Shown: piece after piece, positions 24,365 to 26,293 of the stretch | Layout: each line of letters begins with the position of its first letter | How positions within the stretch are numbered: the first letter of the stretch is position 1 | Notes under the pieces: model-generated | Databases searched by the model: none | The model's input: the letters and a program-made list of their open reading frames with translations, nothing else | What the model was told of the DNA's origin: nothing | Position numbers and translations under genes: made by a program | NCBI RefSeq assembly: GCF_030384885.1 | Contig: NZ_CP128613.1 | DNA: 64,000 nucleotides | DNA from: Escherichia coli | GTDB lineage: Bacteria; Pseudomonadota; Gammaproteobacteria; Enterobacterales; Enterobacteriaceae | Strand: one strand, 5' to 3'

Positions 24365-25396
24365 ATGTCTGCATTTACCCCGGCAAGTGAAGTCTTGCTG
24401 CGTCACAGTGATGATTTCGAACAAAGCCGTATTCTGTTTGCCGGAGACTTACAGGATGACCTGCCCGCGCGTTTAGATACCGCGGCCAGCCGTGCTCATA
24501 CCCAGCAATTCCACCATTGGCAGGTGTTAAGCCGCCAAATGGGTGATAACGCCCGTTTTAGCCTGGTGGCAACGGCGGATGACGTCGCAGATTGCGATAC
24601 GCTGATTTACTACTGGCCGAAGAACAAACCGGAAGCCCAGTTTCAGTTAATGAATTTACTTTCTCTGCTGCCGGTGGGGACGGATATTTTTGTTGTTGGC
24701 GAGAACCGCAGCGGCGTGCGCAGCGCCGAGCAGATGCTTGCAGATTATGCGCCGTTGAATAAAGTCGACAGCGCCCGTCGCTGTGGCCTCTATTTTGGTC
24801 GTCTGGAAAAACAGCCGGTATTTGATGCCGATAAATTCTGGGGCGAATACAGCGTCGATGGCCTGACGGTGAAAACGCTGCCTGGCGTGTTTAGCCGCGA
24901 CGGTCTGGATGTCGGTAGCCAGTTGCTGCTCTCGACGTTAACTCCGCACACGAAAGGTAAAGTGCTGGATGTCGGCTGCGGTGCAGGCGTTCTTTCAGTT
25001 GCCTTTGCACGCCACTCACCGAAGATTCGTCTCACGTTGTGCGATGTTTCTGCGCCAGCAGTTGAAGCCAGCCGTGCAACACTTGCGGCCAACGGTGCTG
25101 AAGGTGAAGTCTTTGCCAGCAACGTCTTTTCTGAGGTGAAAGGTCGTTTTGATATGATCATCTCCAATCCGCCGTTCCACGAGGGGATGCAAACCAGTCT
25201 GGATGCAGCACAAACGCTGATTCGCGGCGCGGTGCGTCATCTTAACAGCGGCGGCGAGCTGAGAATTGTGGCGAACGCCTTCCTGCCTTACCCGGACGTG
25301 CTGGATGAGACATTTGGCTTCCATGAAGTGATCGCGCAAACCGGGCGCTTCAAGGTGTATCGCGCCATTATGACCCGCCAGGCGAAGAAAGGTTAA
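24365..25396 (+). CDS. rsmC: 16S rRNA (guanine1207-N2)-methyltransferase RsmC
   Basis: 343-aa ORF with SAM-binding [11 protein letters not shown] and NPPFH motifs. Confidence 0.93.
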
Positions 25397-25399
25397 GTA

Positions 25400-25585
<186 letters not shown>

Positions 25586-25696
25586 GGACATTTTTCCAGC
25601 AATTACACCTCCGTCGATAATTAACTATTGACGAAAAGCTGAAAACCACTAGAATGCGCCTCCGTGGTAGCAATTCTTTTTAAGAATTGATGGTAT

Positions 25697-25783
25697 GCGA
25701 AGGTGGCGGAATTGGTAGACGCGCTAGCTTCAGGTGTTAGTGTCCTTACGGACGTGGGGGTTCAAGTCCCCCCCCTCGCACCA
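25697..25783 (+). tRNA. leuQ: tRNA-Leu (CAG), copy 1
   Basis: 87-nt sequence GCGAAGGTGGCGGAATTGGTAGACGCGCTAGCTTCAGGTG...CGCACCA: long variable arm, CAG anticodon, encoded CCA. Confidence 0.93.
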
Positions 25784-25811
25784 AAAACCACGTTGATATT
25801 GCTCGCACTGG

Positions 25812-25898
25812 GCGAAGGTGGCGGAATTGGTAGACGCGCTAGCTTCAGGTGTTAGTGTTCTTACGGACGTGGGGGTTCAAGTCCCCCCCCTCGCACCA
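25812..25898 (+). tRNA. leuP: tRNA-Leu (CAG), copy 2, with one substitution in the variable arm
   Basis: Identical to copies 1 and 3 except GTGTTC in place of GTGTCC (C to T) in the variable-arm stem. Confidence 0.93.
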
Positions 25899-25931
25899 AA
25901 CGAGGCGATATCAAAAAAGTAAGATGACTGT

Positions 25932-26018
25932 GCGAAGGTGGCGGAATTGGTAGACGCGCTAGCTTCAGGTGTTAGTGTCCTTACGGACGTGGGGGTTCAA
26001 GTCCCCCCCCTCGCACCA
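25932..26018 (+). tRNA. leuV: tRNA-Leu (CAG), copy 3
   Basis: Identical to copy 1. Confidence 0.93.
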
Positions 26019-26056
26019 ATTATCTTTACTTCCTTTCTTGTTTCTTCCTTGTTTTT

Positions 26057-26293
26057 TCATCCCTGATTCCAGTTCATTATCATCAGCATGACGCCAGCAA
26101 TAAGCGCCAGGCACGATGGTAGCAAAATGTAATGCCGTAACTGTTTGTGATACAACATCACTGGCGTCAACACCAATCCCATCAGAATAACAATCCGCCA
26201 CTGATCCGGCGATAAATCCCCATACGTCAGCCCTGCAATCAGCAATCCTGGCAGCAACACTCCCCAGCCACTGCCCAGCATACGTTGCAACAT
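26057..26293 (-). CDS. yjjZ: Small inner-membrane protein YjjZ
   Basis: 78 aa from MLQRMLGSGWGVLLPGLLIAG...; hydrophobic; position between the tRNAs and fhuF. Confidence 0.6.
   Translation of the reverse strand: MLQRMLGSGWGVLLPGLLIAGLTYGDLSPDQWRIVILMGLVLTPVMLYHKQLRHYILLPSCLALIAGVMLMIMNWNQG

Follow-up and report, generated by a model that had tools for sequence, protein, structure and literature searches.

The locus examined here raises the question of why the middle one of three tandem, nearly identical tRNA genes carries a single different base, and whether that base is peculiar to the strain. The genes lie between positions 25697 and 26018 of the window, by which we mean the whole 64,000-nt stretch of Escherichia coli DNA that was analyzed (contig NZ_CP128613.1 of assembly GCF_030384885.1).

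Identification of the tandem tRNA locus

Exactly three tRNA genes were detected in the window by ARAGORN, all of them tRNA-Leu(CAG) genes on the + strand. Each copy scored 48.5 bits (E = 7.3e-09) against Rfam RF00005, for which the gathering threshold is 29 bits. The first, leuQ (25697-25783), and the third, leuV (25932-26018), are orthologues of MG1655 b4370 and b4368, whereas the middle gene, leuP (25812-25898), matched MG1655 b4369 in 87 of 87 bases. They are separated by spacer 1 of 28 nt (25784-25811), which is identical to that of MG1655, and spacer 2 of 33 nt (25899-25931), which contains a run of six adenines (25913-25918). The upstream neighbor is rsmC (24365-25396, + strand; supported by the open reading frame list, the annotation of strain Z142-3, and tblastn), the landmark for the conserved gene order around the array. 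Downstream lies yjjZ, a DUF1435 gene on the - strand (26057-26293), placed by annotation mapped to the window and by tblastn. In MG1655, the counterpart interval contains leuV (b4368), leuP (b4369), and leuQ (b4370), flanked by yjjZ/fhuF and rsmC, and its alignment to the window was 99% identical. Judged by sequence and gene order, with three tandem genes, rsmC and yjjZ/fhuF as flanks, and one upstream promoter, the locus is the leuQ-leuP-leuV operon of E. coli, situated between rsmC and yjjZ.

The 541-base interval around the genes had a match in 5,425 of 5,426 complete E. coli genomes and was annotated there as three tRNA-Leu genes plus yjjZ. At 99% identity or more, it was found in only 36 of 5,429 records, and at 100% in strain Z142-3 only. 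Compared with the K-12 operon, the window shares not only leuP but also spacer 1, the promoter, the leader, and the neighboring genes. The differences are the length of the adenine run in spacer 2 (A6 in the window, A7 in MG1655), one single-nucleotide polymorphism (SNP) upstream of the promoter, and another in the trailer; none falls inside a tRNA gene. At the protein level, YjjZ of the window was 91% identical and the adjoining RsmC 99% identical to their MG1655 counterparts (tblastn). A match to Rfam naRNA4 (RF02564, a REP-derived nucleoid-associated RNA; 70.3 bits) was located on the - strand at 25475-25557, between rsmC and the leuQPV promoter.

A consensus scan returned a promoter-like site with 10 of 12 matches upstream of leuQ (25628-25655, + strand). 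It consists of TTGACG and TAGAAT, 16 nt apart, with a GC-rich discriminator downstream; its position is that of the FIS-activated leuQPV promoter described previously (PMC9122604), and the stretch was nearly invariant across 36 Enterobacteriaceae operons. A scan for terminator-like sites found no intrinsic terminator on the + strand after leuV, which agrees with the Rho-dependent termination reported for the operon (PMC2190699). In K-12, leuQ, leuP, and leuV are made as one transcript that is cut apart by RNase P, with RNase E not being needed (PMC2190699, PMC7049720). Given its identity to K-12, the operon in the window is probably cotranscribed and its tRNAs separated by RNase P in the same way.

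The variant base and its structural context

Alignment of the three copies left 86 of 87 columns invariant. The sole difference was column 48, which reads C in leuQ (25744), T in leuP (25859), and C in leuV (25979), while copies 1 and 3 are identical over 87 nt. The preliminary description had reported just such a single variable-arm difference confined to copy 2, and it had further stated that a C-G pair of the variable-arm stem becomes a U·G wobble. Both observations were borne out. The stem comprises four base pairs, G46-C57, U47-A56, C/U48-G55, and C49-G54, closed by a UUAC loop; the partner of base 48 is G55 (25866 in copy 2), and folding as well as RNAalifold on 36 operons drew this same stem. 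Replacement of C48 by U48 therefore leaves the helix intact, with a U·G wobble where a C-G pair had been. For the hairpin on its own, the predicted energy was -5.2 kcal/mol with C and -2.3 kcal/mol with U, a weakening of about 2.9 kcal/mol. Among the 36 operons, the corresponding pair of the middle copy (alignment columns 219/226) was UG in 28 and CG in 8. Base 48 of the gene probably corresponds to Sprinzl position e12.

All other features are those of a type II tRNA-Leu, with the anticodon cag at position 35 and a 15-nt variable region containing a 4-bp stem. In all three copies, gene base A84 represents the discriminator A73 and is followed by an encoded CCA. The elements associated with leucyl-tRNA synthetase (LeuRS), namely, A73, the A15-U48 Levitt pair, and G18G19, were likewise present and identical in the three genes. 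Relative to E. coli leuQ, leuV, and leuT, leuP has the same anticodon, the same length, the same LeuRS elements, and 86 of 87 bases in common; it differs in that the other three carry C48-G55 and a hairpin that is about 2.9 kcal/mol more stable. We also considered whether leuP might be a pseudogene and rejected this, with the covariance score unchanged, the identity elements intact, and the gene embedded in a processed transcript.

An A5·C79 mismatch was noticed in the acceptor stem of all Enterobacteriaceae copies (25701 and 25775 in copy 1). Morganellaceae copies have G5·U79 instead, and a Lelliottia/Enterobacter group has C5. Changes at bases 5 and 79 are common to all copies within a genome, whereas base 48 stays dimorphic.

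The T variant among E. coli genomes

The preliminary description had taken the variant for a strain-specific isodecoder. MG1655, however, is identical to the window over leuQ, spacer 1, leuP (T included), and leuV. An 87-nt query composed of spacer 1 and leuP bases 1 to 59 matched exactly in 4,526 of 5,429 complete E. coli records, and a further 450 records had a full-length match with one or two mismatches; in a sample of five of these, T was accompanied by a G-to-A SNP in spacer 1 in four and C was found in one. In comparison with leuP of other E. coli strains, T is thus the reference and majority state, and strain specificity can be dismissed. The T-bearing records make up roughly 83 to 90%. 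Identity-band counts of a T query and a synthetic C query give no closer figure, since BLAST alignments run slightly into spacer 2 and the bands do not separate cleanly; individual records were sampled instead. Exact matches to the 87-nt leuP gene numbered 4,536 of 5,429, an undercount because the length of its C8 run varies between assemblies.

These C8 runs (25768-25775, 25883-25890, and 26003-26010 in the three genes) comprise 7, 9, or 10 cytosines in some public assemblies, yielding "tRNAs" of 86, 88, or 89 nt which may reflect either genuine mutation or faulty assembly. The C8 run has been documented as a hotspot of indels (PMC8510543).

Absence of T in E. coli went together with rearranged or homogenized arrays. 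Spacer 1 was missing from 453 of 5,429 records (approximately 8%), and in those examined, the array had collapsed to a single tRNA gene, namely, in the O157:H7 strains Z1814 and Z1769, the approximately 5.5-Mb strains 155 and F1 E4, and strain AVS0225. O157:H7 strain TR01 has a two-copy array in which leuQ and spacer 1 are followed by a hybrid gene. C follows an exact spacer 1 in at most about 108 of the 5,429 records, a group to which TR01 belongs. Also in this group, three C copies with both canonical spacers were seen in enterotoxigenic E. coli (ETEC) H10407, CFSAN018748, and GMF065. One reassembly of MG1655 also reads C after spacer 1, and its third copy is 88 nt long, which suggests errors in that assembly. 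A metagenomic E. coli contig contains three C copies with spacer 2 present twice, which is the footprint of a contraction followed by re-expansion. E. coli genomes without T have derived arrays, either collapsed to one or two copies or homogenized to C-C-C. The copy number of leuQPV varies within the species, some genomes having up to 10 or 11 matching places.

The T form has been recorded before. leuP has been described as the single tRNA-Leu(CAG) gene that differs by one variable-loop base (PMC12472396), and a tRNA-sequencing preprint grouped the identical genes as "(leuP), (leuQ leuT leuV)" (bioRxiv 10.1101/2020.02.21.958157). In contrast, all leucine tRNA genes are shaded as identical in another study (PMC2190699), so that the difference in leuP is easily overlooked. 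As far as its sequence goes, the T variant is already known and is the normal documented leuP sequence of E. coli.

The array in other Enterobacterales

One genome per prokaryotic species was scanned for an exact T-bearing 27-mer. The scan returned at least 120 loci and, being conditioned on T, gives no fraction of species that lack it. The matches listed include Escherichia albertii, E. whittamii, Salmonella arizonae, Citrobacter, Klebsiella, Raoultella, Kosakonia, and Enterobacter, and also Pseudocitrobacter, Phytobacter, Proteus, Morganella, Xenorhabdus, Photorhabdus, and a Pantoea. T recurred in two contexts among these matches. One is an array that adjoins holD-rsmC and is orthologous to leuQPV; RsmC encoded beside it was 82 to 98% identical in Enterobacteriaceae and 54 to 58% identical in Morganellaceae (tblastn), and spacer 1 was 82 to 100% identical across genera. 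The other is leuT, in argX-hisR-leuT-proM loci, which bears U in Enterobacter, Klebsiella pneumoniae, Citrobacter, Raoultella, Escherichia whittamii, and others. C is found instead in leuT of E. coli; in the genera with U in leuT, the U form makes up half of the tRNA-Leu(CAG) genes.

Three-copy arrays among the matches listed almost always had the order C-T-C, and rsmC-linked C-T-C arrays were found in E. albertii, Salmonella arizonae, Citrobacter, Klebsiella, Raoultella, and Kosakonia. The exceptions in order were C-C-T in Pluralibacter and Trabulsiella and T-T-C in Kosakonia arachidis. These Enterobacteriaceae arrays resemble the operon in the window in their holD-rsmC synteny, in having U48 beside C48, and in the C-T-C order. 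Morganellaceae arrays differ in having two copies, T-C in Xenorhabdus and C-T in Proteus and Morganella, and the G5/U79 acceptor stem.

In a second scan, of metagenome contigs, neither variable base was fixed, so that the search was not conditioned on T. Counting only intact three-copy arrays, 24 of approximately 31 were C-T-C, a rough figure given how often tandem repeats are merged in metagenome assemblies; numerous hits to single copies or at contig edges, probably collapsed repeats, were left out. RsmC adjoining the C-T-C arrays was 84 to 99.7% identical to RsmC of the window, and in 11 of the 24 it was only 84 to 91% identical. The minority comprised one C-C-C array, one four-copy array with C throughout, and several with an 86-nt isodecoder in the middle. 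Since C-T-C was found across genera and also in the scan that did not select for T, T in the middle gene is taken to be ancestral and old.

The 86-nt tRNA-Leu(CAG) isodecoder, which occupies the middle slot in some Enterobacteriaceae and distinguishes their arrays from that in the window, has a shorter variable arm (GTCCTTAGGAT) and the T loop TTCGAGT. In a five-gene array, it alternates with the standard copy, and at two loci it is the third copy.

Complementary flanks around each tRNA

In the minimum free energy (MFE) fold of the precursor and in RNAalifold on 36 operons from different genera, each tRNA of leuQPV was bracketed by complementary flanks on the + strand. Around leuQ, leader positions 25663-25668 pair with the 5' part of spacer 1 (25787-25792). 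The 3' part of spacer 1 (25793-25805) pairs with the 5' part of spacer 2 (25901-25914) around leuP, and the 3' part of spacer 2 (25917-25927) pairs with a trailer segment (26020-26031) around leuV. A further hairpin with a CAAUUC/GAAUUG stem was predicted in the leader (25671-25689), by the MFE fold and independently by RNAalifold. In the alignment of the 36 operons, 86.4% of cells in these helices were paired, compared to 26 to 50% when the partners were slid by one to three columns. For the leader hairpin, the value was 100%, and two of its pairs are compensatory (AU to UA or the reverse in 13 sequences); compensatory changes were found in the leuV helix as well. Such pairing of the flanks would explain why the spacers are 82 to 100% conserved across genera. 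How RNase P recognizes the long leuQPV substrate has been left open (PMC2190699), and the flank helices, of which no description was found in processing studies of the operon (PMC2190699, PMC7049720), may bear on this recognition.

Alternative explanations for the middle-copy base

Taken together, we consider it very likely that the locus is an ordinary leuQPV operon and that T in leuP is an ancestral, tolerated, near-neutral isodecoder base. A single strong promoter would drive all three genes, and RNase P would release the individual tRNAs from the common transcript, supplying tRNA-Leu(CAG), the reader of CUG codons. U48 in the leuP product would form a U·G wobble that weakens the stem by about 2.9 kcal/mol but keeps it, leaving a normal, functional tRNA-Leu(CAG). 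In this view, the middle gene ancestrally had U, which most E. coli and many Enterobacterales retained by descent, and arrays without it would be products of unequal recombination or gene conversion between the nearly identical copies. According to a recent review, neither the sequence nor the folding of the long variable arm correlates with leucylation in E. coli, and structural variation is tolerated there (PMC9976931). Because LeuRS does not read the variable arm (PMC9976931), the two isodecoders are most likely interchangeable, that is, the U and C forms are functionally equivalent. The suggestion in the preliminary description that the substitution is probably neutral fits this review (PMC9976931).

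One observation counts against near-neutrality: U has persisted in one slot for longer than would be expected of a freely drifting site. The trailer cannot be aligned between genera (alignment columns 400 to 430), yet U keeps its slot, and it does so beside flanking C copies that could overwrite it and that, within E. coli, visibly do. The U isodecoder might accordingly be kept by selection, for instance through distinct stability, processing, or modification or by evading a factor that targets tRNAs. Across Enterobacteriaceae, the variant form sits in the middle slot, mostly as U48 and elsewhere as the 86-nt variable-arm variant; C48 and U48 coexist on two backbones, A5/C79 in Enterobacteriaceae and G5/U79 in Morganellaceae; leuT also bears U in many genera; and C-C-C arrays are rare in E. 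coli (at most about 108 of 5,429 records). On the other hand, neither a phenotype nor a biochemical difference was found in the studies consulted (PMC2190699, PMC12472396, bioRxiv 10.1101/2020.02.21.958157, and PMC9976931), LeuRS ignores the variable arm (PMC9976931), and the U variant is missing altogether from the successful O55:H7/O157:H7 lineage and from ETEC H10407. The estimate of conservation also derives in part from the T-conditioned scan. Overall, maintenance by selection appears improbable. We likewise regard as unlikely its broader form, in which a two-isodecoder system of Enterobacterales (C or U at e12) has been kept by selection since before the split of Enterobacteriaceae and Morganellaceae. 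If it were true, the U·G form would have been fixed in the rsmC-linked slot for processing, for stability, or for resistance to tRNA-directed attack.

It is very improbable that a C-to-T hotspot in this highly transcribed gene has been hit repeatedly and independently in many lineages. C-to-T changes do occur next to base 48, at base 49, and now and then in the first or third copy, as in the T-T-C and C-C-T loci, and tRNA-Leu genes are prone to mutation in mutation-accumulation lines (PMC8510543). However, independent hits would strike any copy, while nearly all three-copy arrays have T in the middle gene. This position, together with the conserved spacers and the synteny, makes the pattern one of common descent.

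The earlier idea of a recent, neutral substitution restricted to the isolate was based solely on comparing the three copies within the window and has hardly any probability left, T being present in MG1655, in at least 4,526 E. coli records, and at 120 or more loci elsewhere, in the same array slot. A sequencing or assembly error at 25859 would be conceivable where nearly identical tandem repeats assemble badly and neighboring C8 runs show length errors in some assemblies, but such an error would tend to homogenize the copies rather than rebuild the reference base, and the presence of T in thousands of independent assemblies makes its probability negligible.

Implications

For work on E. coli, base 48 of leuP is unusable as a strain marker; more lineage information is carried by the presence or absence of the array and its copy number. 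T should not be "corrected" when assemblies are polished, because it is in all likelihood the true ancestral sequence. The persistence of a U·G pair in a fixed slot between C copies poses a small question of how tandem tRNA genes escape homogenization.
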